A DNA stretch of 11,066 nucleotides from a virus (lineage: Duplodnaviria; Heunggongvirae; Uroviricota; Caudoviricetes), in the IMG/VR virus record IMGVR_UViG_2693429582_000021, positions 1 through 11,066 of that record; one strand, 5' to 3'. How positions within the stretch are numbered: the first letter of the stretch is position 1; each line of letters opens with the position of its first letter. Below are positions 1-11,066 of this stretch, piece by piece. The notes beneath the pieces were generated by a model. The model did no database searches and had not been told where the DNA came from. It worked only from the letters and a program-made list of their open reading frames with translations. Both the position numbers and the translations under genes were made by a program.

Positions 1-34
1 GTATTCGCCGCCCGTATTCGTCAGGAGGTGCGCC

Positions 35-265
35 ATGTGCAATAAAAACACGCCGGACGCAGCAGGCGAAGCATTGAAAGTACTGATACATGCGCTTGTG
101 GATATAAATTGCATGGTAGAGATCATGGAGAGGAAATCACAGTCGGAGTACGACAAAAGAAAATTTAAAACAATAAAAATAATTACCAAAAACTCACTGA
201 CAAAAGCTACAGACATCCTCAATGAGGACACTAAAAGAATCAGGGAGAAACTGTGTGATGCATAA
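35..265 (+). CDS. hypothetical small protein (76 aa), first gene of plus-strand operon
   Basis: ORF with strong Shine-Dalgarno (AGGAGG at about 23-28) 6-8 nt upstream of the ATG at 35; no recognisable family from the translation. Confidence 0.5.
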   Translation: MCNKNTPDAAGEALKVLIHALVDINCMVEIMERKSQSEYDKRKFKTIKIITKNSLTKATDILNEDTKRIREKLCDA

Positions 266-485
266 AATACCTTTTGATGTTCTTATTCATTCTGAGAATG
301 CATTAATCCGCGCAAAGGAAATGGAGGCATTATTACTTAAGTTAATGGAAGTGCCGGAAAATGGCGATGAATCATATCCCATGATGTTTTCTGCCGTGCA
401 CACATTATTAACGCCAGTAATTAACGAATTAAATACGGTGATGGCAATTCACGAGAATAATAAAGCGCATCACACCGGAGAATAA
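258..485 (+). CDS. hypothetical small protein (about 75 aa from the ATG at 258; the ORF is open from 222)
   Basis: In-frame ATG at 258 preceded by GGGAGA about 9 nt upstream; overlaps the stop of the previous ORF (263-265), consistent with coupling. Function unknown. Confidence 0.4.
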   Translation: MHKIPFDVLIHSENALIRAKEMEALLLKLMEVPENGDESYPMMFSAVHTLLTPVINELNTVMAIHENNKAHHTGE

Positions 486-490
486 AAACC

Positions 491-790
491 ATGAAACAGA
501 AAAATTCTGGCTTTACTGCCAGCGGCCTCCCTCGGCCTGAAATCCGCCCCGGCGATATTTTCCGGGATAACTACGGCGGCACAGTAACGATTAAACACGT
601 GGCGGGACGGTGCGTTACTTACCGCCGTGATGGGTACGGCTATGACTGCGTGATGCCTGTTTATCAGTTCCGGCGTGATTTTTCCCTGGTACAGACTGCG
701 CCGCGTAACCAGCCCACCAGCAAAGAGAAGGCACGGGTAAATATTCAGGCCATAAGAAAAATGCTTAACGGATTCAGGGGTAAAAAATGA
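491..790 (+). CDS. hypothetical protein (99 aa), translationally coupled to the downstream primase-like gene
   Basis: GGAGA about 10 nt upstream of the ATG at 491; its stop overlaps the start of the next gene as ATGA (787-790). No family recognised. Confidence 0.5.
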   Translation: MKQKNSGFTASGLPRPEIRPGDIFRDNYGGTVTIKHVAGRCVTYRRDGYGYDCVMPVYQFRRDFSLVQTAPRNQPTSKEKARVNIQAIRKMLNGFRGKK

Positions 791-2919
791 AACTGGCACC
801 GAACGTAAAACTATTGCCGAAAGATAAAGGTGAGGAAGCAGTAATTTTTGTGGGGGATGACGCATACAGCCACGCAGAACATTACAGGCAGGGTGGAGAA
901 GCCGGAAAGCGCGGCGACAAAATACCGCCCGTTTATATCGGACGGCGTGACCTGGGTAATCTGGAAAACCTGCGTATTGTGGATGATGGCCGGTTACGCG
1001 TCATGGTCAGACGTGCCGGAAAGCTGGATGGCAAACAGGCGCTACAGATTGAAACCCTGCTCGCAGTAGCTGGTGTTAAGGAAGTCAGTTTTTGTGACGA
1101 GAACGGCGAACTACTGGAGGACTGGACACCACAGCTTGCCCGACTGAAAGACGAATACGAGCGTGGGGAAAGTCTGGTGTTGCCCTTAAAGAAAAAAATC
1201 ACAGAAAACCATGGCGATGATGAATTAAAGCCCCGCGTTGAAAGCCGCGCCGATGGTGTTTTCTGGGTAACGCCCAAAGTGGATAAGCAGTCAGGCGAAA
1301 TTATCCGGCCTGAGACGTGGTTATGTTCCCCGCTTGAACTACTGGGAACGGGAACAATCGGCAAAGAGCATTACCGCGTGATGCGCTGGAAAAAATTAGC
1401 AAATCATGAAGTCATCACAATGGCGATCCCGTGTGGTGGCATTGGCGACCGTGACGGCTGGCGGTTGCTGAAAGACCACGGTTTGAACGTGACAACCAAC
1501 GGTAAATACAGGGCTGTCCTGGCTGACTGGATGCAGTTAAGCGGAAGCCATGAGGAATGGCAGTTAAGCACAACAACGGGCTGGCATTTTGGCGCGTACA
1601 TCATGCCGGATGGTTCGGTCATTGGTGATTGCGAAAAGCCAGTCCTGTTTACCGGAAAAACGGCTGCCGTTAATGGTTATTCCGTGACAGGAACGGCGGA
1701 GGGCTGGCGCGACAGTGTGGCGCGACTGGCTGGTGGTAATCCGTCCATGATGCTGGGAGTGGCGGTATCGTTATCCGCACCATTAATCGGGCTGGTGGGC
1801 GCTGACGGCTTCGGGGTACATCTTTTCGAACAGTCATCGGCAGGGAAAACCACCACACAGAACATAGCATCAAGTTTATGGGGAGAGCCGGACGCGCAAC
1901 GGCTGACCTGGTACGGAACGGCGTTAGGTATCGCCAACGAGGCAGAGGCACACAACGACGGACTGTTACCACTGGATGAAATAGGCCAGGCCGGAAACGC
2001 GCGGGAGGTGTCCACATCGGCTTATACGCTGTTTAACGGTTCCGGTAAATTGCAGGGGGCGAAGGACGGCGGCAACAGGGAGATAAAACACTGGCGAACG
2101 GTGGCAATCAGTACCGGAGAAATGGACGTTGAGACATTCCTCAAAACGGAGGGGATAAAAGTCAAGGCGGGGCAGCTTGTCCGCCTGCTTAACGTGCCAA
2201 TGGAAAAAGCCACACAATTTCACGAATACAGCACCGGAAAGGCGCACGCAGACGCGTTAAAGGATGCCTGGACAGCAAATCACGGGGCGGCGGGGCGTGA
2301 GTGGGTTAAATGGCTGGCAGACCACCAGCAGGAGGCAAAGGATACAGTAAGGGAATGCCGTGAACGGTGGCGCAACCTGATACCGGAGAGCTACGGCGAG
2401 CAGGTCCACCGCGTGGGTGAGCGTTTCGCCATACTGGAGGCCGCACTTGTGCTTTCCGGTCATGTGACTGGCTGGGATGAGCAGGAATGCCGCGATGCCA
2501 TTCAGCATAATTTTAATGCCTGGGTGAAGGAGTTCGGCACGGGCAACAGGGAACACAGGCAGATTATTGAACAGGCTGAGGCGTTTCTTGCGGCCTATGG
2601 CCTGAGCAGGTTCGCCCCTGTCAATTATGACCCTGCCAGCCTGCCGATTTCAGAACTGTACGGCTACAGGGAAAGCGACGGGCGTTATGACGAGCCTGTT
2701 TTGTTTTACGTGCTGCCGGAGCCGTTTAGCTCACATGTGGCGAAGGGATTTAACAAGGATGCCGTAGCAAAGACCCTTCATGAAGCCGGAATGCTGAGAA
2801 AACCAGCCAGCGGGCGAGGATGGCAAATCAGGACACCACGGCTAAAACACCTGAAAGGGGCGCGGCTAAGAGTGTATGGCCTTTTGCTGACGCAGGACTA
2901 CGATGCTGAAAATGATTAA
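787..2919 (+). CDS. replication protein of integrative element/satellite: primase/helicase-like P-loop NTPase (DUF927/SF3-helicase-like architecture)
   Basis: 710-aa uninterrupted ORF; Walker A-like motif SSAGKTT (about nt 1840-1860) and Walker B-like hhhhDE (LLPLDEIG, about nt 1960-1985) in the middle of the protein; large N-terminal domain; immediately followed by an iteron array. Family assignment from pattern recognition, not a search. Confidence 0.8.
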   Translation: MKLAPNVKLLPKDKGEEAVIFVGDDAYSHAEHYRQGGEAGKRGDKIPPVYIGRRDLGNLENLRIVDDGRLRVMVRRAGKLDGKQALQIETLLAVAGVKEVSFCDENGELLEDWTPQLARLKDEYERGESLVLPLKKKITENHGDDELKPRVESRADGVFWVTPKVDKQSGEIIRPETWLCSPLELLGTGTIGKEHYRVMRWKKLANHEVITMAIPCGGIGDRDGWRLLKDHGLNVTTNGKYRAVLADWMQLSGSHEEWQLSTTTGWHFGAYIMPDGSVIGDCEKPVLFTGKTAAVNGYSVTGTAEGWRDSVARLAGGNPSMMLGVAVSLSAPLIGLVGADGFGVHLFEQSSAGKTTTQNIASSLWGEPDAQRLTWYGTALGIANEAEAHNDGLLPLDEIGQAGNAREVSTSAYTLFNGSGKLQGAKDGGNREIKHWRTVAISTGEMDVETFLKTEGIKVKAGQLVRLLNVPMEKATQFHEYSTGKAHADALKDAWTANHGAAGREWVKWLADHQQEAKDTVRECRERWRNLIPESYGEQVHRVGERFAILEAALVLSGHVTGWDEQECRDAIQHNFNAWVKEFGTGNREHRQIIEQAEAFLAAYGLSRFAPVNYDPASLPISELYGYRESDGRYDEPVLFYVLPEPFSSHVAKGFNKDAVAKTLHEAGMLRKPASGRGWQIRTPRLKHLKGARLRVYGLLLTQDYDAEND

Positions 2920-2944
2920 TCTCGCGTGTAGGCGGTAACAATAT

Positions 2945-3272
2945 GTTGTCCCAGTCGTCCCAGAAAGCAATAAGCAAGCGTAACATATTGAATTTTATAG
3001 ATTTCACTTGCAAAAAGTGGGACAACAGCGGGACAACATTCAGGCATTTTGGGACAACATTGCGGCATTTTGGGACGACACGACACGTATTTTTTACCGT
3101 GCCGAAGGGTGGGACAACGCAAAACCCCTCATGTCGTCCCAAAATCGGTAAATGTCGTCCCACTTTGCGGAGTGTGTTTTTAATAAAATCAATAAGTTAA
3201 CATTAAGTGGGACAACCGGGACAACTGGGACGACGTGTTTTGTATATATATACGAAAAATCGAGATCTGAAC
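2945..3272. repeat. iteron array plus AT-rich tract: putative replication origin
   Basis: About 12 copies of the 8-mer GGGAC(A/G)AC in both orientations (plus copies at 3019, 3030, 3051, 3072, 3111, 3209, 3218, 3227; inverted copies GT(T/C)GTCCC at 2945, 2954, 3133, 3154). Three copies sit in a 21-bp tandem unit CATT..GGCATTTTGGGACAAC (3030/3051/3072). An AT-rich stretch TGTATATATATACGAAAAAT (3241-3260) follows. Position directly 3' of the replication gene matches rep-ori organisation in satellites and plasmids. Confidence 0.7.
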
Positions 3273-3273
3273 T

Positions 3274-3516
3274 ATGAAGTCAAACCGCAAACAACCACAC
3301 TACCGCGCCATTGACCTTACAGAGCACTGGCTGAGAGTGGCGATAAAAATCATCGACCGCAACACGGGGGAAGGATACGCGAAAGCACACCCCGAACTGA
3401 TAAGCGCATTCATGGCAACGGCGGCAGCAAACTTTGCCACGCTGACAGAACGGGAGATTGCCGAATCGGAACAGGTGACAACCATCAACATTAAAACCGG
3501 AGAGCAGACAGCATGA
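3274..3516 (+). CDS. hypothetical protein (80 aa)
   Basis: ORF beginning just after the AT-rich tract; its stop overlaps the next start (ATGA at 3513-3516). No family recognised. Confidence 0.5.
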   Translation: MKSNRKQPHYRAIDLTEHWLRVAIKIIDRNTGEGYAKAHPELISAFMATAAANFATLTEREIAESEQVTTINIKTGEQTA

Positions 3517-3935
3517 CAGCACAGATAGCGGCTTACGGGCGGCTGGTGGCTGACCCGCAGTTAAAGACCACCAGCAAAGGGACACAAATGGCGATGGCGA
3601 GTATGGCGGTTCCCCTGCCGTGCAGCCAGGCCGATGACGGAACGGCGACGATGTGGTTATCCGTCCTGGCGTTTGGCAGACAGGCCGACGCACTGGCCAG
3701 ACACCACAAAGGCGAACTGGTGAGCGTGGCGGGTAACATGCAGGTAAGCCAGTGGACAGGCCAGAACGGCGAAACGCGGCAGGGCTGGCAGGTTATCGCA
3801 GACAGCGTAATCAGTGCGCGAACGGCGCGACCGGGCGGCAAAAAAGGTCAACAGGGCCAGGCTACTGACGCGCTGAACAGGGCAAAACAACAGGCGGGTA
3901 ATGATGATCCGTACGAAGACAACATACCGTTTTAA
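3513..3935 (+). CDS. single-stranded DNA-binding (SSB-like, OB-fold) protein
   Basis: 140-aa translation shows an SSB-like pattern: N-terminal GRLVADPQLK resembling E. coli SSB GNLGQDPEVR, conserved W...FG...A...KG..V...G......W....G..R spacing, and a Gly/Gln-rich tail ending in acidic residues plus DNIPF (SSB tails end D-D-D-I-P-F). Confidence 0.7.
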   Translation: MTAQIAAYGRLVADPQLKTTSKGTQMAMASMAVPLPCSQADDGTATMWLSVLAFGRQADALARHHKGELVSVAGNMQVSQWTGQNGETRQGWQVIADSVISARTARPGGKKGQQGQATDALNRAKQQAGNDDPYEDNIPF

Positions 3936-3971
3936 TTCACAACAGCGAACAGAGTTATTACAGGGGAAAGC

Positions 3972-4496
3972 ATGACAAAGCTGACCATTAACCGAAAACC
4001 GAAAGGCATTTACGGCACGCTGCAGAAAACGACGCAGGCGATACAGCAGCAGGATAAAACCACATCGGCGCATAAAGTGATACCCGGCAATCAGAACGCA
4101 CAGCAGAAGCCCACAGGGGCGACACCGTGGCGGCATATGACCAAACGCCAGCGCAAAAACCGCAGACGCGTTAACCGCCTTACTGAGATGTGGCCTGACT
4201 TATTCAGCCGGGAAGCGCCAAAACCGCTGAAGGTGGGGATATTCGACGACCTGATGCAGGATATCGCCGTCAGGGGGCTGGCATTCGGGCCGGGGGCATT
4301 ACGTGCGACGCTGGCATCTTATGCGCAGTCTCCACGCTATTACCGCGCCTTAATGGCTGGTGGGGTACGCTACGACCTGAAAGGCCAGCCATGTGGCGAG
4401 GTGACATCACAGGAACAACAGGACGCAGAAACGCGGCTGATGATGCTGAATGAGAAGCGTAAACGCCGGACAGCAAAGGAGAAGACAGGCGCATGA
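3972..4496 (+). CDS. FinO/ProQ-family RNA-binding protein (RNA chaperone)
   Basis: 174-aa ORF; the C-terminal two thirds align with the F-plasmid FinO core (WP.LF....P.L..GI.D.L..D.A.R...., Y...M.AG..RYD..G); basic N- and C-terminal tails typical of the family. SD-like GGGGAAA upstream of the ATG. Confidence 0.8.
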   Translation: MTKLTINRKPKGIYGTLQKTTQAIQQQDKTTSAHKVIPGNQNAQQKPTGATPWRHMTKRQRKNRRRVNRLTEMWPDLFSREAPKPLKVGIFDDLMQDIAVRGLAFGPGALRATLASYAQSPRYYRALMAGGVRYDLKGQPCGEVTSQEQQDAETRLMMLNEKRKRRTAKEKTGA

Positions 4497-4780
4497 TTCG
4501 TGACAGCAAAGCGGAAGAACTGGAGGCTAAAGGGCTGTACCGAAGAGCGACGGCGCGGTGGGCTGAGGTTATGCAACTGGTGAACACCGATAAGGAGCGC
4601 GAACAGGCGGCAAAGCGTCGCGCGGAATGTATCCGTAAGGCAGCACGCCCACCCGTTATGGCGGATAACTTCGGAGCGCTGAAAGAGGCTGTAAACCGCA
4701 CTCATGCGGTGATGGGGATGGAAGACGCGGGTAAATCCGTCTGGCGGAACTATCCAAAGCAGCCGGGCAATAATCAGTGA
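4493..4780 (+). CDS. small regulator, possibly PerC/Pch-family transcriptional activator
   Basis: 95-aa ORF coupled to the FinO-like gene (ATGA overlap at 4493-4496). N-terminus MIRDSKAEELEAKGLYRRATARWAEV resembles my recollection of PerC/Pch N-termini; the family call is tentative. Confidence 0.4.
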   Translation: MIRDSKAEELEAKGLYRRATARWAEVMQLVNTDKEREQAAKRRAECIRKAARPPVMADNFGALKEAVNRTHAVMGMEDAGKSVWRNYPKQPGNNQ

Positions 4781-4862
4781 TGCCGGATATTATCCTGAAA
4801 AATGACCATCACTCCCGTGGGCGGATAACATAAAATCCTGCATATACGCAGATACACAGACG

Positions 4863-4887
4863 AAGCCGGAACACTCCGGCTTTTTTT
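4863..4887 (+). terminator. rho-independent terminator ending the plus-strand replication/regulatory operon
   Basis: Stem AAGCCGGA / TCCGGCTT with loop ACAC, followed by a run of seven T (4881-4887). Confidence 0.7.
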
Positions 4888-4965
4888 ACGGGTCCTTCCA
4901 GAGGGGTGGCCTTACCGCGAGGCGACGGACGCGCGGAAATCGCCAAATTTTCGCATTTTTATCGG
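4888..4965 (+). other. cos-like site A (diverged cosQ-cosN-cosB-like sequence)
   Basis: ACGGGTCCTTCCAG (4888-4901) matches the lambda cosQ-region motif ACGGGTCCTTTCCGG. About 32 nt downstream, GAGGCGACGGACG CGCGGAAATCGCC AAATTTTCGCATTTTTATCGG parallels lambda GGGCGGCGACCT CGCGGGTTTTCGC TATTTATGAAAATTTTCCGG, roughly 65-70% identity by eye. Confidence 0.45.
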
Positions 4966-5233
4966 TCATCACCACCAGCGCAATTTATTGATAATGAAGG
5001 TTAAAAAAATTCCTGGTGTCGAAAACGCCTGTTTTTTGTTCACCACTGAATCATGCCGCATCACGATAACCCACAAGGCTGGTGGTGATGCGTTATGGTC
5101 CCTACGTTGCCATCCCCCTGACCTCATGGCATTATCCGGCGTGAACGAGCGGTTATTCTCCGTACTCTTAATCGTTGTTCATGGTTATTTGCTTTGTGGT
5201 AGCTTACATTTCCTGATGGTTATTATCCTTCCG

Positions 5234-5257
5234 CCCCGTAATCACGGGGTTTTTTTT
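5234..5257 (+). terminator. rho-independent terminator inside the non-coding region
   Basis: Perfect hairpin CCCCGT-AATC-ACGGGG followed by eight T (5250-5257). No credible upstream CDS, so it may terminate a small RNA; the 128-aa ORF 4988..5374 reads straight through it. Confidence 0.6.
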
Positions 5258-5295
5258 GTCTGCGATTTGCCGTTCTCCGTTGCGCTGGTGGTAAC

Positions 5296-5331
5296 GTCAC
5301 GATGTGTCACGACATGTCACCATCACGTCAC
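5296..5331. promoter_or_regulatory. phased array of four GTCAC motifs at about 10-bp spacing (putative protein-binding site)
   Basis: GTCAC at 5296, 5306, 5316 and 5327 within aacGTCACgatgtGTCACgacatGTCACcatcacGTCACg; one helical turn apart, which would place all sites on the same face of the DNA. Confidence 0.4.
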
Positions 5332-5720
5332 GCTGATGGCGAAAGTCAGGGTTAACCAGTACCGGAACGGGTAGCCCGATGTACTGTTACCGTTCTGCTG
5401 GCTGGTGGAGTAATTGATAACGGTTATCATCAATGGGAGGGGTGGATCAAATCCCTGTAGTCCTGGCTGTCAGGGACCGCCGCCCAACCCTTCTTCACAT
5501 CGCCGCAGGTTCGAAAACTTTTTTTTGGGAAGGTGCGCACAGACTTGATAGATAAAACCTATCAGACAAAACCACGCCAACCCCGCGCCATTGCTGGCAT
5601 CGTTAAAAAAACTCACTCCACCAGCAGGCTAAAAAACCGTGATTTTTCCGGTTTTATGGGCTGAAAAGGGGCTCCCTAAAAAACACCTCTTACACTGCCG
5701 GACAGGGGCGGTGACTTTTC

Positions 5721-5850
5721 ACGGGTCCTTTCCGGGGATCTGAAACACCACGGGGCGGCAGACGCGCAGATTTTCACTATTTATAAAAATTTTTCAGGGA
5801 AAAAGCATGTCGGTACTTCTTGCATGTAACATTATGTTTTTATTGCAACT
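5721..5850 (+). other. cos: cos site B: lambda-like cosQ, cosN and cosB upstream of terS
   Basis: 5721-5735 ACGGGTCCTTTCCGG is identical to the lambda cosQ-region motif. 5753-5764 GGGCGGCAGACG aligns with lambda cosN GGGCGGCGACCT. The following CGCAGATTTTCAC TATTTATAAAAATTTTTCAGGG ... CTTCTTGCATGTAAC ATTATGTTTTTATT parallels lambda cosB. The cosN-to-terS-start distance (189 nt) is essentially that of lambda cosN to Nu1 (about 190 nt). Confidence 0.75.
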
Positions 5851-5941
5851 AACTATCATAAACATACGACACCATAACGCCGGAAAATCCCGTTTTTCAG
5901 GCGTTTCATGTCGGAGGTGGTTTTTGATGAGGATTTGATAA

Positions 5942-6526
5942 ATGAATGTTAACAAAAAGAGACTGGCGGAGATTTTCGGTGTTGATCCGCGCACAATTGA
6001 GCGCTGGCAGATGCAAGGGCTTCCCCATGTATCTGGTGGCGGAAAAGGTGTGGAGGTGACTTTCGACTCTGCACAGGTGATCGAATGGTATGTACAGAGG
6101 GAGAAGGAGATCGAAAACGAAAAACTCCGCAGGGAGCTTGATGATTTACGTGCTGCTGGTGAATCAGATTTACAGCCAGGCACAACAGAGTACGAACGCT
6201 ACCGTCTCACCAAAGCACAGGCGGACGGGCAGGAACTGAAGAACGCCAGAGAGACAGGGGAAGTTATAGATACTGAGTTCGTACTCTGTGCGCTTCGTGG
6301 ACTGGCGAGTCAGATTTCTTCGATCATGGATAGTTTGCCGCTCACAATGCAAAGGCAGTTCCCCGGGATGACTCCGGCAATGCTCGATGGCCTGAGGAAG
6401 GAAACAGCACGAGCCTGTAATGCGTGCGCTAAAACTGCCGATAACCTACCCCGCATTCTGGAAGACTATCTGATGGAAACAACCGGAAACGTGCCGGAGA
6501 AGTTACGGCAACAGAAAGGTGAGTGA
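5942..6526 (+). CDS. terS: terminase small subunit, lambda Nu1 family (orphan; no terL follows)
   Basis: 194-aa translation closely parallels lambda Nu1 over the N-terminal wHTH and ATP-binding region: [49 protein letters not shown]...LR.A.E.DLQPGT.EYER.RLT.AQAD.QELKNAR. The C-terminal 40 aa diverge. Nothing resembling a large terminase follows on either strand. Confidence 0.9.
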
Positions 6527-6553
6527 CAACCGCGCAATTATTGAACAAAACTG

Positions 6554-6616
6554 AGAAAGGATCTGATAACGTTATTTTTGGCCCAAAATGACCACTGTCA
6601 GATCCTTTCTTTTTCT
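6554..6616. terminator. large palindrome downstream of terS, possible bidirectional terminator or protein-binding site
   Basis: Perfect 13-bp inverted repeat AGAAAGGATCTGA (6554-6566) / TCAGATCCTTTCT (6598-6610) with an inner ATTTTTGG-C-CCAAAAT hairpin, followed by TTTTTC on the plus strand. Confidence 0.45.
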
Positions 6617-6619
6617 GAT

Positions 6620-6753
6620 GATTTTACGATTAAACAATGAGTTACAGAGAAGAAGAACGGATCTGACTTTTCCCGAAAAATTTTCATAAACAGTTAAGAA
6701 TTGCGCGTATCCGTACCCCCGGCGCTCAAGATTCTGGAAAGGACCCGTGACAC
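6620..6753 (-). other. cos-like site C (inverted orientation relative to cos B)
   Basis: Minus strand reads TCACGGGTCCTTTCCAGAATCTTGAGCGCC GGGGGTACGGAT ACGCGCAATTCTTAAC TGTTTATGAAAATTTTTCGGG AAAAG TCAGATCCGTTCTTCTCTGTAACTCATTG. This parallels lambda cosQ / cosN / R3 / TATTTATGAAAATTTTCCGG / CGTTTCCGTTCTTCTTCGTCATAACTTAATG. The cosQ-to-cosN spacing is about 4 nt shorter than in site B. Confidence 0.65.
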
Positions 6754-6760
6754 CTGACCA

Positions 6761-6783
6761 ACAAAAAAGCCCCCGAAGGGGGC
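6761..6783 (-). terminator. rho-independent terminator of the minus-strand toxin-immunity operon
   Basis: Hairpin GCCCCC-GAA-GGGGGC (6768-6782) with an A-run at 6762-6767 on plus, giving a T-run after the stem on minus, immediately 3' of the immunity gene stop at 6788. Confidence 0.7.
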
Positions 6784-6787
6784 TAAA

Positions 6788-7036
6788 TTACGCATCTTTA
6801 AAACTGGATTTGCCATTAGCTAAACGCCAGGTTTTAACTTCTTGTACGATGGCTTCCGGACTATCGTCTTTTCCGTTCTCTGGATAAAAAATTAGATCAG
6901 AGCCTGATGGATGTTCAGAGAGGCGCCTGAATTCTCTGACTAACTGCTCGCTTTCTTTTTCTGTTCCTTCTGCATTACATATTTTTCGAACAAGATCTAA
7001 GAATTCATTTTCAGTATAGTCGTTTATTGTTTTCAC
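6788..7036 (-). CDS. colicin/pyocin DNase immunity protein, Im7/Im9 family
   Basis: 82-aa translation [24 protein letters not shown]....[40 protein letters not shown] matches Im9 (…SDYTEAEFLQLVTTICNA….[40 protein letters not shown]). GTG start 1 nt after the toxin stop, with AGGGGA SD inside the toxin 3' end. Confidence 0.85.
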
Positions 7037-7037
7037 G

Positions 7038-8729
7038 TTATTTTCCCCTGTGAATTTCTATATGCCGCTTTGGTGTTGTGATACCCATATTATCAACGTT
7101 ATAAACTTCGCCCCCCTCACTTATAGGTTTAATATGGTGTATTTCGTAACGTTCCCTCCCACCAACTCGCTCCACTTCCCTTGTGAATGGTGAACGTCCT
7201 TTGCGAATGTTCGTGAGGTTGTGTGCTCTGAACTGTCTTGACAAATCAGCATCGTTTGCCACTTCTGCCCAAAATGCCTCCCTGAATCGATCAAAATTCG
7301 CAAATGTTCGCCCACGCATCCGCTCCGCAATCTGGCTGGGTACTGGTGCACCATTTCCCTTATCGGCATCCACCAGCCACGCCCCGCTAATTTTTTGTCC
7401 TTTCCCTGTTACCTGCCCGGCGTTATTCCTGATGTAAATATAAATCGGCGGTATATCCGGGAATGGCAGGATCAGAATGTAATCCGCAAAATCCTTTTCT
7501 TCCGGGGCCGGGCTGGTTGTGGCGTGTAATCCCGTGTCATCCGGTAACGGGTCCACCATCACCGGATTCGGCAGCACTGGCGGGTACTGATTTCCCGTGT
7601 GGTACGGTACATCAATCCCCGGATTATCCGGCGTCCAGATGAGTGTGATACGCGGGTCTTCCTCCGTGGTGAATGTGTACGCCTTTCGTCTGTCGTCCCA
7701 CTCCATCCGGCGCACGCGCACCCTGTCCTGTCCCGGTGGCGTATGCCAGCCATGCGGAACGGGGTTCCCCCGGCTGTTCGTCTCCCAGGTAAAGCGAACA
7801 CGGGTAGGCACTTCCCTAGCCTGTTCGGCCCTCATACGGTCGATAAAATCCTGTTCCCCGTCATTCAGCCGACCGGGCATCATCCCTATCAGAAACGCCG
7901 CCAGTGGCAGCCCCGCAACCCCGGTCGCAGTTTCACCCACGACGGCCCACGTTCCCCGGATGGCAAAATTCCCCGCCACCGGACGCAGAACGCTCGCCCC
8001 GGCAATTGCCGCTCTGGCCCGTTGTGCGCGCTCCGCTTCTTCAACCGCACGCTGATAATCCATTTCCTCGTGATGGCCGTTCCACCATTTCCACAGTGCA
8101 CTGCGTTTCTTCGGCTTCGGGATATCCTCCGGCGCAACCAGTTTTTTCTTTTTGACCGCCTGTGCACGCTGCGGGGTTTCCGTGTCCGTCACCGGGTCAG
8201 TCTGCGGAACGGCCTGATAAATCCCCATCGGTGCAAAGTTGGTATGCGGCTCCCGCTGGTCGCCCGCGTCGTTGCATCCCTCACCGCGCAGACAGGATTT
8301 TGCAAACACCCGGTTACGTTCCCGTTCTTCCTCCCGGCGTTTTTCTTCAGCTTCCCGTTCTGCCTTGCGTTGTGCTATCAGTTCCGCCTGTTTTTTCTGT
8401 GCAATTTCTGCCGGCGACGGCCCCGCCCCCATCCACTGACCGAGCGGGGCAATAATCCGGTTTGAACCTTCAGGGCAGCCACAGTGAACAACACAGCCAT
8501 CAACGGCAATAGGAATATCTATCACCTTAAAACGGGCTTCTCCTTCTGCCACCATGCCGAGCTTTCCGCACGCCGGGCAGGGGGTGGTTTTGTCCCCCTT
8601 ACGAATAAGACCGTAACCACAGACGTTGTAGTTAGGGACAGGAAGGGAAGTAATCAGCCATGCGCCGGTGGTGGTTTTGTCACAGGAAAGCGCCATTCCC
8701 CTGCCGTGTATATCCGGCCTGTATGTCAT
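7038..8729 (-). CDS. polymorphic nuclease toxin: Cys-rich N-terminal domain, charged coiled-coil linker, pyocin-S-like region, C-terminal colicin E9-type HNH DNase
   Basis: The 563-aa C-terminus ([49 protein letters not shown]…[42 protein letters not shown]) matches the colicin E9/E7 DNase domain including the HNH motif. N-terminal 100 aa carry six Cys in CxxC and CxCGC clusters (possible Zn-binding, PAAR-like GD.T..C..CG pattern). Residues about 115-145 form a Lys/Glu/Arg-rich linker. No signal peptide. Resembles chromosomal bacteriocin-like genotoxins such as Usp, unverified. Confidence 0.9.
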
Positions 8730-9217
8730 GGCTTACACTCCGGCACTACCAGAAAATCCGCTGGCATACTTTCGCCTTCACGACAACAAAGTAATGCTGT
8801 TCGCTGCGGCGTACTGATAATTTCATCCCCGTTATCCAGTTGGCTGCCAACCAGCGCATACCCTTTCCCGTGACAGCTAAACGCACTGCCGGAACCACTG
8901 ACAATACGGGCCGTTGTGCCGTCCTGATAAGTCACCTCATCCCCGACCATCGCCATTTCAGCCATCTCTCCGGTGCTGTCAGCGACTTCGCAGCCGGAAC
9001 TGGCGGAAGACACCACCCCGCCATTACGGGTAAGGCTACCGGTAATGGCATGTCGCCAGATAGCCACTATCGGATGTTGACGGCAAAATTCCTCCTGCTC
9101 CCTGATTATCGCCAGCGCATCATCGGACATATCAGCAAGCGCTTCTTCTGTAAAAGGGGATTTATCCAGTTCTGCCAGTACATCGGCGGTCAGTTCGTTG
9201 GTATATTGCTTCATCAT
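8726..9217 (-). CDS. hypothetical 163-aa protein upstream of the toxin, possibly PAAR-like or adaptor
   Basis: Start MM at 9217 with AGGAAA SD-like upstream; stop overlaps the toxin start (ATGA coupling at 8726-8729). Acidic N-terminal 50 aa, then a Gly/Ser-rich region with repeated VGD and GS motifs (MAMVGDEVTYQDG, IVSGSGSAFSCHGKGYALVGS) reminiscent of PAAR repeats, and a Cys-containing C-terminus. Confidence 0.6.
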   Translation of the reverse strand: MMKQYTNELTADVLAELDKSPFTEEALADMSDDALAIIREQEEFCRQHPIVAIWRHAITGSLTRNGGVVSSASSGCEVADSTGEMAEMAMVGDEVTYQDGTTARIVSGSGSAFSCHGKGYALVGSQLDNGDEIISTPQRTALLCCREGESMPADFLVVPECKP

Positions 9218-10050
9218 GTTTCTGTTTTTCCTGTGGTTAACAATCGACCAGAATCATAATGAAAGGGAATGCAAAAAAATTGATGGATATCAAAATGAAA
9301 AATAAAATCATCCCGGTAAAACAGGATATCTACCCCACCAGCATCCCTGGATTTTCAGATAGTTGCTTTTAGCCTCTGAACAACATCTGCTGGTGGCTGA
9401 TAATTACAATAATTCCTGCCCCCTGGCGTTTCTGAGCATGTTTACCGCGAATTTTGCGCAAAACACCTTAACAATTCTTAAATTTTAAAAACACTTCAGT
9501 GATAAGCATCACCGCTCCCGCTCACATTTGACACAGGCAACTCCATCTGGCAGGTGAAAATCAAATTTATTTATATATTTCAATTGATTGTAAACTGGTC
9601 TAATGACAGGGGAGAAAAAAGACTGTACAGGTGAAAACAGAAATAATTTTTAATTATCAATGAATTATCACACATGCTGCCGCCGCCATGAAAATGCAAA
9701 AACTAGCCGTTTTCTGCGCATCCGTCGCCCCGCGGTAAGGGGCACCCCACCGGGAGGACCCACGACGATCAGGGCGTTTTATCAACGTCGTGTGTTATGC
9801 CGGATTAACTGCGTACGTAATACGTGCACATCCCGAACAGGAGCAGCCAGAATCAGCGCCGCTGACGTTGTTTTGTGGTTATCCCCCTGTCATGAATCAT
9901 CGCAATGGTTTTATGTGTTCTGCGTTGCGCTGGTGGGTTATTCCACCATTGGTGGGAAACATGGCACCACATCCACCAGCTTAAACGCGCTTCACCTTCC
10001 CGGCATCAGTCGCCACAATTACGGCATTGCTTTCCATCACCACGGAGGCC

Positions 10051-10341
10051 ATGACCATGACCGAAGCCGAAATGCTCAAAATGATTCGCCGTGCTGCCGG
10101 AATCAGCCAGGCAGCAGGCAAACAGGAGGCCACGCAACCGGACAGCGTGATAGCCGAAAATTACGCGCGTGTGGTGGCTGATGTGATGCGCCGTGACGGT
10201 ATCGAGCTTAACGGCGTGGATATGCGCGATATACGAACCAGAGTTCTCGAGTTGCTGGCATGTCGTCGCCGTTCTCAGCAACGGAGGGAGAGCGCGAAAA
10301 ATACTTACCAGTGGAAGAAGCCGGAGCGGTTACGGCGGTAG
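10051..10341 (+). CDS. hypothetical protein (about 95 aa; the ORF is open from a TTG at 10027)
   Basis: GGAGG at 10044-10048 with ATG at 10051 and 10057; basic C-terminus; no family recognised. Confidence 0.45.
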   Translation: MTMTEAEMLKMIRRAAGISQAAGKQEATQPDSVIAENYARVVADVMRRDGIELNGVDMRDIRTRVLELLACRRRSQQRRESAKNTYQWKKPERLRR

Positions 10342-10577
10342 TGTCAGCATGATTTGCGAGGTAGTAATACTGACTCGCAACAGAGTGACCGATAGCCACC
10401 CTGTTCAACCGTTCCGGCTGGCTGGGCAGATTTTGCGCGGGTCTTATAGTCCCTCACAACAGAGTAAATAAAATTGACTTGGTTACAGAGTAACCAAACC
10501 GGAGATTCCCGGTTTGCTCAAAAAATGACAATGAGTTACGCCCCCTAACCTAAGTAATCCTTACATTCACTGCATCA

Positions 10578-10592
10578 TCACCATGATGGTGA
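10578..10592. promoter_or_regulatory. 7-1-7 palindrome TCACCAT-G-ATGGTGA (candidate operator)
   Basis: Perfect 7-bp inverted arms in an intergenic region. Confidence 0.3.
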
Positions 10593-10706
10593 CGCAGCCC
10601 ACCAGCAACCATAACGATTTCCGTTACAGTTGATGTGCTTTTTTGCTGGTAAGGCGTAACCCGTTGATTGTTCCAGAATCCCCCATTGGGGGAAGCTGAA
10701 AAACTC

Positions 10707-10731
10707 ACCCACCAGATTCTGAATGGTGAAA
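10707..10731. promoter_or_regulatory. 9-7-9 palindrome CTGAATGGT-gaaaatg-ACCATTCAG (hairpin or operator)
   Basis: Perfect 9-bp inverted repeat; shares the ATGGTGA core with the palindrome at 10578; a second hairpin CCCGAAA…TTTCGGG follows at about 10747-10773. Confidence 0.3.
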
Positions 10732-10976
10732 ATGACCATTCAGCTTCATGTGTCCATTTTCCCGAAACAGGAAAACCCGTTTTCGGGAGAAGGTGCGATC
10801 ATGTTCGTCATACCTGTTCCGTTGAAACGGTAATACCCCATTCCGGCGTAGCTGGTGGGTATGATGCCGATGCCGGGATCTCGGTATCGGTTTATCCGTG
10901 ATCATCCACCAGCTTGATAACGGATAACAGGGAGTCATAACGGTTAAAATTGTATACTTTTGCAGCAAACATTTTT

Positions 10977-11021
10977 AGCTACACGTTAAGCTACACGATT
11001 TTTGAGTTGAAATTTTCAACT
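10977..11021. promoter_or_regulatory. direct repeat AGCTACACG x2 followed by palindrome AGTTGAAA/TTTCAACT (candidate regulatory site for a gene beyond the window)
   Basis: AGCTACACGTTAAGCTACACG, then GAGTTGAAATTTTCAACTTCAAC; AT-rich context at the window edge. Confidence 0.3.
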
Positions 11022-11066
11022 TCAACTAAATCAATTAGTTATTGGCATGTTTTGAATACTCTCGTG

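Follow-up and report, generated by a model that had tools for sequence, protein, structure and literature searches.

Toxin with its own PAAR cone, second PAAR protein and immunity protein on a PICI-type satellite of E. coli: a probable orphan T6SS effector-immunity cassette

A three-gene toxin module is the 3' cargo of a PICI-type satellite of about 13.9 kb, which in E. coli occupies the tRNA-Pro yejM/yejO site. The module was studied in a window of 11,066 nucleotides (the whole stretch of DNA analysed; positions 1 to 11,066 of the Caudoviricetes virus record IMGVR_UViG_2693429582_000021). It is probably an 'orphan' T6SS effector-immunity cassette which has been captured by the satellite. A sequence-only reading of the window had offered three options: a T6SS-delivered effector on a mobile element, a bacteriocin released by lysis, and an abortive-infection defence. 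The first is best supported, by the PAAR folds, the payloads of the toxin family, the characterised protein YPK_0952 and the T6SS of a strain that carries the island.

The three genes lie on the minus strand at 8726-9217, 7038-8729 and 6788-7036, where they had been called from the letters, and encode a PAAR protein, a toxin and an immunity protein respectively. They are tightly coupled. The ATG of the toxin gene overlaps the stop of the 163-aa ORF (ATGA), and the 82-aa ORF starts with GTG 1 nt past the toxin stop. A strong intrinsic terminator (AGCCCCCTTCGGGGGCT and then a T run; 6768..6784, minus strand), 4 nt past the immunity stop, closes the operon. The AT-rich region upstream (9218..9494, minus strand) is presumed to be a promoter/regulatory region. 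It travels with the module: it is kept in loci L002 and L003 up to window position 9481, and it is missing from the related PICI L103 up to 9494. A scan of 9220-9660 found no minus-strand sigma-70 promoter with a clear consensus, and Rfam gave no match in the window at gathering thresholds. The search for a LexA box (CTGT-N8-ACAG, at most one mismatch) which had been suggested for 9220-9660 gave 0 matches there; the pattern occurs five times in the whole window, which is not above chance. There is no lysis gene, and no ORF follows the terminator within the operon. With neither a lysis gene nor a LexA box, the module is not a standard colicin operon, as had been claimed. Because it comes with an upstream region and a terminator of its own and lies opposite the packaging gene, the module is probably expressed from the integrated island and not at satellite induction; this timing is deduced from the layout.

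The toxin (563 aa; 7038-8729, minus strand) consists of a PAAR cone, a Pyocin_S domain and an HNH DNase. Its N-terminal 105 residues (8415..8729, minus strand) are modelled as a complete PAAR cone of its own, the second in the operon; the Pfam PAAR_motif match at residues 17-86 (22.6 bits) is below the cutoff. The N-terminal Cys cluster that had been pointed out is real and conserved: among 49 homologs C85 never varies, and C51, C54 and C83 hardly vary. The four Cys presumably bind Zn. Residues 106-300 (7830..8414, minus strand) begin with a long helix (106-138; AF2 pLDDT 82-88), which is followed in the alignment by conserved segments at residues 140-156 (17 letters), at about 202-218 (14 letters) and, hydrophobic and Gly-rich, at about 268-286. 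BLAST matches to this region are found solely in the Pyocin_S subfamily of partners of the small PAAR protein. The remainder of 106-300 is modelled at low confidence, as is everything past residue ~138, unexpectedly including the Pyocin_S region.

The Pyocin_S domain occupies residues 301-432 (7434..7829, minus strand; Pfam 1.9e-29; PDB 3MFB match 2.2e-25) and ends at a PPIYIY junction. Pyocin_S is an inner-membrane translocation (IMT) domain common to nuclease bacteriocins and T6SS nucleases (PMC9040868). Residues 438-563 (7041..7418, minus strand) are a colicin E2/E9-type HNH DNase with the motif EIHHIKPIS (Pfam Col-Pyo_DNase 3e-52, residues 438-561). It aligns end to end with ColE2 (3.6e-50) and ColE9 (3.8e-46), and the HNH motif is intact. 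The NCBIfam VPA1263 model covers residues 238-560. The 82-aa protein (6788..7036, minus strand) is an immunity protein of the Im2/Im9 family (Pfam Colicin_Pyocin 7.4e-33), in which the DNase-binding helix III motif reads SDLIFYP; Im2 is closest (2.2e-31), followed by Im9 (about 4e-27). The domain calls made from letters alone (two PAAR, Pyocin_S, E9-type DNase, Im9-type immunity) are thus borne out by Pfam and by the folds. The kinship with E9/Im9 is correct as to type, but the nearest colicin relatives are E2 and Im2. The toxin itself is ordinary: it is a colicin-type DNase with its immunity protein.

The toxin belongs to a polymorphic family, in which a conserved N-terminal part of ~435 residues is joined to C-termini of differing types: DNase, E3-type rRNase, Ntox21 and Tle1-like lipase. 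Identity to the window toxin is 64-68% for Enterobacter bugandensis proteins of 556-565 aa. A recombination junction at 7417..7426 (toxin residue ~434) marks where the toxin C-terminus and immunity gene have been exchanged: homology between the window and the variant modules L002/L003 ends at 7417/7426 and picks up again at 6781. The variant immunity protein is of the DUF6392/CdiI_5 type, and this second toxin/immunity allele is also carried by a full PICI at the same site. In the Tle1-like lipase modules the third gene encodes a DUF2931 protein; since a lipase of this type acts in the periplasm, it needs export. The module family is mostly found in chromosomal, non-lytic contexts and is not phage-linked. 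No satellite genes are present near the 78 cross-species loci, save for one distant integrase match in L027, so carriage by a satellite is specific to E. coli in this sample. The identification of the Pectobacterium partner in L023 with ECA1669 was rejected; the solved fragment of ECA1669 is a distant relative, and PDB 3MFB is only a distant match, in the Pyocin_S region (E 2.5e-24).

Several features point to delivery by a T6SS. The toxin has the N-terminal PAAR spike-tip fold of a specialised T6SS effector, and its C-terminal toxin domain and the adjoining cognate immunity gene, 1 nt apart, form the pair expected of an effector. [quoted passage not shown] A T6SS had been proposed as something to look for elsewhere in the genome. 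It was sought in E. coli C5, a carrier of the island whose module is 98% identical to that of the window and which stands proxy for the window's own genome; the T6SS cluster of C5 lies at aspV and is complete, and no core gene in it is flagged as a pseudogene. Among 104 loci, tblastn with 16 E. coli T6SS proteins gave one Hcp-like match within 10 kb, and the recurrent neighbours of homologous modules (neighbour clustering and Pfam) are only housekeeping genes, with no T6SS genes. Since it is not linked to vgrG, hcp or a T6SS cluster, the effector is called 'orphan'. Such linkage is common among specialised effectors, but it is not required. As the toxin has no characterised close homolog, we infer T6SS dependence from the architecture.

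Three points speak against the T6SS reading: the modules are not linked to T6SS genes, one operon encodes two full PAAR cones, and the PAAR fold also tops phage tails and eCIS/PVC particles. The PAAR proteins might cap the spike of a phage tail, tailocin or eCIS, for example if the satellite loads the toxin onto helper-phage or tailocin particles; this is considered highly unlikely.

A diffusible bacteriocin is also improbable, although somewhat less so. In that case the toxin-immunity complex would build up, be freed by helper or prophage lysis and enter neighbouring cells like a nuclease colicin or pyocin, by means of Pyocin_S and FtsH. The C-terminal two thirds of the toxin do match klebicin G (residues 241-563; 1.8e-49), ColE2/E9 and pyocin S2 (in the DNase), the immunity protein is Im2/Im9-like, and the life cycle of a satellite closes with lysis. 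Contact-independent killing is also reported for the T6SS-secreted YPK_0952, which has the same architecture (PMC11237486). However, a PAAR cone is present in place of a receptor-binding/outer-membrane translocation domain; Pfam finds no domain of either kind in the toxin, and no TolB-box or TonB-box was noticed in an informal reading by eye. The missing lysis gene and LexA box and the largely non-lytic, chromosomal settings of the family also argue against a bacteriocin, as do sister toxins with the same N-terminus, which bear Tle1-type lipases and other T6SS-type payloads.

If the module is a T6SS effector cassette, the 563-aa protein would dock by its N-terminal PAAR cone on the VgrG spike tip of the host T6SS, which would fire it into a neighbouring Gram-negative cell. 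The Pyocin_S (IMT) domain would ferry the HNH DNase over the inner membrane of the prey. By analogy the route may involve FtsH, which nuclease bacteriocins use to cross the inner membrane. The DNase would then break down the prey chromosome, and the 82-aa Im2/Im9-type protein would protect the producer and its sister cells by binding the DNase. Mobilisation of the island by a helper phage would hand weapon and antidote together to the recipient.

The small PAAR protein (163 aa; 8726..9217, minus strand) has an N-terminal helical extension of ~48 residues, with a near-invariant QYTNELT motif, and a complete PAAR cone which spans about residues 50-136 in the predicted structure; Pfam PAAR_motif matches residues 59-135 with 29.4 bits (cutoff 27). 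It had been described as a Gly/Ser-rich protein with PAAR-like repeats. The PAAR-like call is right, and the composition just mirrors the PAAR repeats. Across 65 homologs there is no Cys or His in the invariant or near-invariant columns, and the protein does not have a conserved His/Cys metal site near the tip; such a site is found in many PAARs, but not in all. At E <= 1e-10 the family of small PAARs comprises 217 cluster representatives.

The small PAAR gene lies directly 5' of the PAAR-toxin gene in 59 of the 62 loci with a full-length partner, and these loci span Enterobacterales and Pseudomonas. Divergence in one PAAR part goes with divergence in the other (Pearson 0.66), and in 16 module pairs both PAARs are similar and the toxin ends are unrelated. 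Recent duplication of one PAAR from the other was rejected, as profile-profile comparison shows no similarity between them (hhalign probability 3%). The small PAAR is an obligate, co-evolving partner of this PAAR-toxin class. In the current model there is one PAAR per VgrG spike (a trimer); two full PAAR cones per operon do not fit a simple spike-tip model. The gene position of the small PAAR is the usual one for T6SS chaperones and adaptors, and its most likely function is to assist in stabilising the toxin or in loading it. More tentatively, the Zn-less small PAAR may be the cognate 'co-PAAR' of Cys4-PAAR polymorphic toxins, in a two-PAAR delivery unit which was captured by a satellite in E. 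coli. It could, for instance, be a PAAR-fold chaperone which caps the VgrG-binding face of the toxin PAAR until loading, or a second tip needed for firing. That two complete PAAR cones are so strictly paired poses a concrete puzzle for T6SS mechanics, and one that can be tested; if the second PAAR is required, this would hint at a loading or chaperoning step in the T6SS that has gone unrecognised.

By Pfam, the window encodes a DUF4222 protein, a DUF927 primase-helicase, an SSB, ProQ/FinO and PerC proteins and a Nu1-type small terminase (terS/Rpp-like; 5942..6526, plus strand; Phage_Nu1 1.9e-68), to which the module is convergent. Full copies of the island add an integrase, AlpA and flanking 26-nt repeats. 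The right-hand direct repeat, a putative attR, is at window positions 10972..10997, which places the module inside the element. In the full copy L001 the repeats are at 4721-4746 and 18610-18635 and flank the ~13.9-kb island. The hallmarks of a PICI are all found: genes for integrase, AlpA, pri-rep and a terS homolog, repeats on both sides, a length (13.9 kb) within the usual ~10-15 kb, and the absence of genes for structure or lysis. Backbone genes, full copies and repeats agree with the sequence-only reading that the module is satellite cargo convergent to terS. Among 5426 complete E. coli genomes, 1954 have the backbone and 3 have the module; related islands at the same site have no module and carry other cargo. 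A Usp/Imu1-3-type locus in a fixed, non-mobile position had been kept in view as a contrary explanation. Usp is followed by three Imu genes and has a fixed position on a pathogenicity island. This candidate was rejected: the window toxin has a PAAR N-terminus, one immunity gene is followed by the terminator, and the module, present in those 3 genomes, lies in a variable satellite slot.

PICIs carry accessory genes after terS (PMC10085698, PMC11364771), and this 3' region is known to house immune systems (PMC11364771). The position of the module, and a Panacea-domain pair among the alleles of its slot, would suit an anti-phage abortive-infection or toxin-antitoxin system, and a nuclease with a tight-binding inhibitor does resemble a TA pair; infection would free the DNase and so lead to cell death or degradation of phage DNA. 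Most of the cargo known from PICI ends is of this anti-phage kind. Such a role is very improbable. PADLOC gives 0 matches for all three proteins (and none for four small satellite ORFs), two PAAR folds and an IMT domain are without a role in intracellular Abi, homologous modules are found off satellites in the 78 loci of other species, and some payloads (Tle1-like) are periplasmic. With no PADLOC match and a mostly chromosomal family, the abortive-infection option finds no support.

The novelty implied by the sequence-only reading was too high. Papers on the PAAR-Pyocin_S-toxin architecture already exist (PMC7813860, PMC11237486, PMC10763514). Because this architecture is known from YPK_0952 and from Ppp1-3, the window toxin would be one more orphan, specialised T6SS effector accompanied by an immunity protein. 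Neither the pairing with a small PAAR nor the carriage by a phage satellite is described in the literature searched; most subscription journals lie outside it, so this is weak evidence. No report of tandem or paired PAARs was found there, and no PICI was reported there to carry a nuclease bacteriocin or a T6SS effector with its immunity gene. If the T6SS reading holds, phage satellites move interbacterial weapons besides virulence genes and defences against phages. One transduction would be enough to make a T6SS-positive E. coli a killer of its former kin, immune to the donor, and the ecology of phage satellites would be tied to strain competition in the gut. If the co-PAAR reading is also true, helper phages would spread a ready-made T6SS weapon and its antidote between strains.

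[quoted passage not shown] Unlike nuclease colicins, the window toxin has no receptor-binding/outer-membrane domain, lysis gene or SOS box; a PAAR cone stands where colicins have their import machinery. Those colicins are encoded on Col plasmids, whereas the present modules are chromosomal or satellite-borne. TseT-PAAR4-TecT of P. aeruginosa (Burkinshaw 2018, as cited in PMC7813860) reportedly has a separately encoded PAAR and chaperones, and an effector with no PAAR of its own. It likewise has a small PAAR gene beside the effector, and the order of helper, effector and immunity genes is the same; here, however, both proteins have complete PAAR cones. VPA1263 (MIX), Hcp-ET, the VgrG-PyocinS-HNH protein of SPI-21 and Usp also combine Pyocin_S and a colicin-type DNase payload with Im-type immunity, and VPA1263 is encoded on a genomic island. 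Their delivery is not by PAAR (it is by MIX, Hcp or VgrG), and they have no paired small PAAR.

The pair YPK_0952/YPK_0953 is similar in its N-terminal PAAR, Pyocin_S region, DNase activity and adjoining immunity gene, and YPK_0952, too, is encoded at a distance from the core genes of the T6SS; it lies in an effector island. It is not a detectably close homolog, however, and it is not on a satellite. A search that started from the Yersinia pekkanenii partner has no Y. pseudotuberculosis protein among its best 120 matches. The papers on YPK_0952 report no small PAAR gene upstream of it (PMC7813860, PMC11237486), and T6SS dependence is an experimental finding on YPK_0952 alone. Ppp1-3 of Enterobacter bugandensis (PAAR Pyocin-S domain-containing Proteins) are predicted in silico to be T6SS effectors (PMC10763514). 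They belong to the same family as the window toxin and are encoded by 'lone' PAAR genes outside T6SS clusters. Their Pyocin_S domain spans about 298-442, and PF09000 is among their variable C-termini; that paper holds no experiments and mentions neither a small PAAR partner nor a satellite. The EcCI-type PICIs of E. coli (PMC10085698, PMC11364771, PMC11773190) have the same int, alpA, pri-rep, SSB, ProQ/FinO, perC and terS genes as the island. They are also about 14 kb in size and tRNA-adjacent, with a variable slot after terS, but the cargo reported for them consists of anti-phage systems and virulence factors.

The ORFs for the 163-aa small PAAR protein (8726-9217), the 563-aa toxin (7038-8729) and the 82-aa immunity protein (6788-7036) lie on the minus strand, exactly where the sequence-only reading had placed them. 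The toxin start overlaps the stop of the 163-aa ORF as ATGA, the immunity gene (GTG start) follows the toxin stop after 1 nt, and a strong intrinsic terminator on the same strand (6784 to 6768) is found 4 nt past the immunity gene, so all three belong to one tight operon. It is convergent with the satellite small-terminase gene terS (5942-6526), as that reading also had it.

Pfam detects a PAAR_motif in the small protein (29.4 bits; cutoff 27) and, sub-threshold, in toxin residues 17-86 (22.6 bits). The toxin also contains Pyocin_S (residues 301-432, 1.9e-29) and Col-Pyo_DNase (residues 438-561, 3e-52), and the 82-aa protein falls in the colicin/pyocin immunity family (7.4e-33). Complete spike-tip folds are present in both the small PAAR protein and the toxin. 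The toxin cone has four conserved cysteines in the alignment (C85 is invariant; C51, C54 and C83 are nearly so); the small-PAAR alignment has no conserved Cys or His. Profile comparison finds no similarity between the two PAAR families, so they are distinct lineages, and a recent duplication as their source is ruled out. Over its full length the DNase domain can be aligned with colicin E2 (3.6e-50) and colicin E9 (3.8e-46), and its HNH motif is intact. Pfam and alignments thus recover the proposed PAAR-like units, N-terminal Cys cluster, Pyocin_S domain, E9-type DNase and Im9-like immunity. The likeness to E9 and Im9 holds at family level, but E2 scores better than E9, and Im2 is the closest immunity protein (2.2e-31; the helix III motif is kept as SDLIFYP). 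Two other strongly conserved toxin segments are confined to the Pyocin_S subfamily of partners. One, residues 140-156 (8262-8312), has two conserved Cys; the other, residues ~268-286 (7872-7928), is a hydrophobic, Gly-rich, glycine-zipper-like stretch directly before Pyocin_S which ends in GMMPG (consensus GLLVGMMPG).

The small-PAAR family comprises 217 cluster representatives at E <= 1e-10, only the closest ~30 of which cover the N-terminal extension. Scanning one genome per species with the small-PAAR alignment gave 78 loci from Enterobacterales, many Pseudomonas species and Acinetobacter baylyi. Most have, no more than 25 nt after the small gene, an ORF of 360-630 aa and then a small third gene. 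The partner starts with the same Cys-cluster PAAR domain in 59 of the 62 loci where it is full-length; partners differ in their C-termini, among which are Tle1-like phospholipases accompanied by a DUF2931 third gene. Small-PAAR identity tracks partner-PAAR identity (Pearson 0.66), also among paralogous modules of the same genome (0.59/0.48, 0.46/0.40, 0.39/0.38), and in 16 module pairs both PAARs are >70% identical while the toxin ends are unrelated. Together, this co-divergence and the unrelated ends argue, at the level of sequence, that the two PAARs are what is conserved as a unit, with an exchangeable payload. Physical interaction of the two PAAR proteins may only be inferred, because adjacency alone could explain their co-divergence.

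Toxin homologs are widespread in Enterobacterales. They have the first ~435 residues in common; past a PPIYIY junction they diverge into DNase, E3-type rRNase, Ntox21 or unknown domains. A variant of the module, with a different C-terminus and a DUF6392/CdiI_5 immunity gene, occurs in two other E. coli genomes and on a full PICI on a metagenome contig. Aligned to the window, the variant loses homology at 7417-7426 (toxin residue ~434) and regains it immediately beyond the terminator: toxin end and immunity gene are exchanged together, a classic exchange. A Cedecea colo locus (L027, 3340-12200) holds three modules in tandem. The first has a small PAAR, a 564-aa DNase toxin and an Im-type immunity protein, the second a small PAAR, a 565-aa toxin and a 155-aa immunity protein, and the third is a truncated copy; the PAAR parts of the first two are 97-99% identical, their C-termini only 32%.

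The window covers most of one PICI-type satellite, with DUF4222, DUF927 primase-helicase, SSB, ProQ/FinO, PerC and Nu1-type small terminase genes (Pfam). The island adjoins tRNA-Pro between yejM and yejO, with an integrase and AlpA at its left end, in E. coli C5 and in eight copies, draft or metagenomic, whose toxin is identical. A 26-nt direct repeat brackets the ~13.9 kb island; its right copy is at 10972-10997, so the module lies inside the element, which bears out the proposed satellite location. Of 5426 complete E. coli genomes, 1954 match the backbone and only 3 have the module. Instead of the module, related islands at this site have other cargo (a Panacea-domain pair, a second PerC, an F4 fimbrial subunit). 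Comparison with them delimits module-specific DNA at ~6751-9494, the position of the known 3' accessory region of PICIs (PMC10085698, PMC11364771).

The replication module of the satellite is mosaic. The 710-aa DUF927 primase-helicase (787-2919) is replaced by a RepA/AAA_25 helicase of ~470 aa in E. coli C5 (L001, 8787-10193) and in the metagenomic PICI L108 (10080-11495), with flanking genes 89-98% identical. Just downstream of the primase-helicase gene, iteron-like tandem repeats based on GGGACAAC (3030-3080, 21 nt x 2.4 copies; 3209-3231, 9 nt x 2.6 copies) probably mark the replication origin. Related PICIs at this chromosomal site have the terS segment (4890-6759) inverted: the whole of it in L102, whose terS lies on the opposite strand, and part of it in L103. 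terS is flanked by inverted repeats of ~90-110 nt with 71-83% complementarity (arms at 5710-5802 and 6668-6759), and the right arm stops where module-specific DNA starts. The packaging segment may be able to invert or recombine. The 1.16-kb perC-terS interval (4781-5941) has no convincing ORF and gave no hit in Rfam; a 10-nt x 3.6-copy repeat lies at 5296-5332, and the interval could hold a cos/packaging site or a regulatory RNA. The satellite also has genes for an RNA chaperone of the ProQ/FinO family and an activator of the PerC family (3972-4780), and PerC occurs a second time among the cargo of related islands (L102, 10064-10366). Since PerC/Pch-type regulators act on the LEE pathogenicity island (PMC11773190), PICIs with these genes may rewire host virulence regulation.

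Homologous modules are found in other settings. None of the 78 cross-species loci shows satellite carriage. In Pectobacterium atrosepticum (L023, 4100-19000), a 161-aa PAAR, a 572-aa PAAR-Pyocin_S toxin and CdiI_5 immunity neighbour AlpA, an H-NS-like gene, a MobA/MobL relaxase and a TraD-like gene; this module seems to be carried by a mobilisable island, not by a satellite. In E. coli OkiPb01677 (L002, 1-26876), the variant module sits beside a PerC remnant in an IS-rich island with an Hhe anti-phage protein, a reverse-transcriptase gene and a cdiA locus with orphan VENN toxin ends; the island is a hotspot gathering several conflict systems.

Three roles had been proposed from sequence: T6SS effector, bacteriocin and abortive-infection system. 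The last, in which the pair would act in phage defence, finds no support in a search for known defence systems. Release as a bacteriocin on lysis is a possible side route, but Pfam finds neither receptor-binding nor outer-membrane translocation domains in the toxin, and the module has no lysis gene or SOS box; it is not a standard colicin operon, as the sequence-only reading had noted. The modules are orphans whose recurrent neighbours are housekeeping genes, and an Hcp-like gene lies within 10 kb in only 1 of 104 loci. This ORF (L063, an Enterobacteriaceae MAG, 7673-7957; 27% identical to E. coli Hcp), ~2 kb upstream of the module, is the sole T6SS-like gene near any homologous module. A phage-tail or eCIS carrier for the PAAR proteins is structurally possible but at odds with the genomic distribution. 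The sequence-only reading had suggested looking for a T6SS elsewhere in the genome; the island carrier E. coli C5, whose module is 98% identical to that of the window, has a complete T6SS cluster at aspV (tssA, B, C, E, F, G, H, J, K and M, icmH/dotU, two hcp, vgrG and an Rhs protein). Some sister payloads need periplasmic export. The same payload has been published on Hcp, VgrG, MIX and PAAR carriers, and secretion of the PAAR-bearing Yersinia protein YPK_0952 is ClpV3-dependent (PMC7813860, PMC11237486, PMC9040868, PMC10763514, PMC12288458, cited jointly). From the two spike-tip folds, the periplasm-bound sister payloads, these published cases and the C5 cluster, we infer T6SS delivery of the module.

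An obligate upstream co-PAAR and satellite carriage are undescribed in the literature searched, which is weak evidence because most subscription-journal papers lie outside that search. The toxin and immunity pair itself belongs to an already published kind, and an identical protein is annotated in E. coli as 'S-type pyocin domain-containing protein'. Homology searches did not place YPK_0952 or the characterised Pectobacterium protein ECA1669 in the exact subfamily of the toxin; the Ppp-type PAAR Pyocin-S proteins of Enterobacter bugandensis are members of it.
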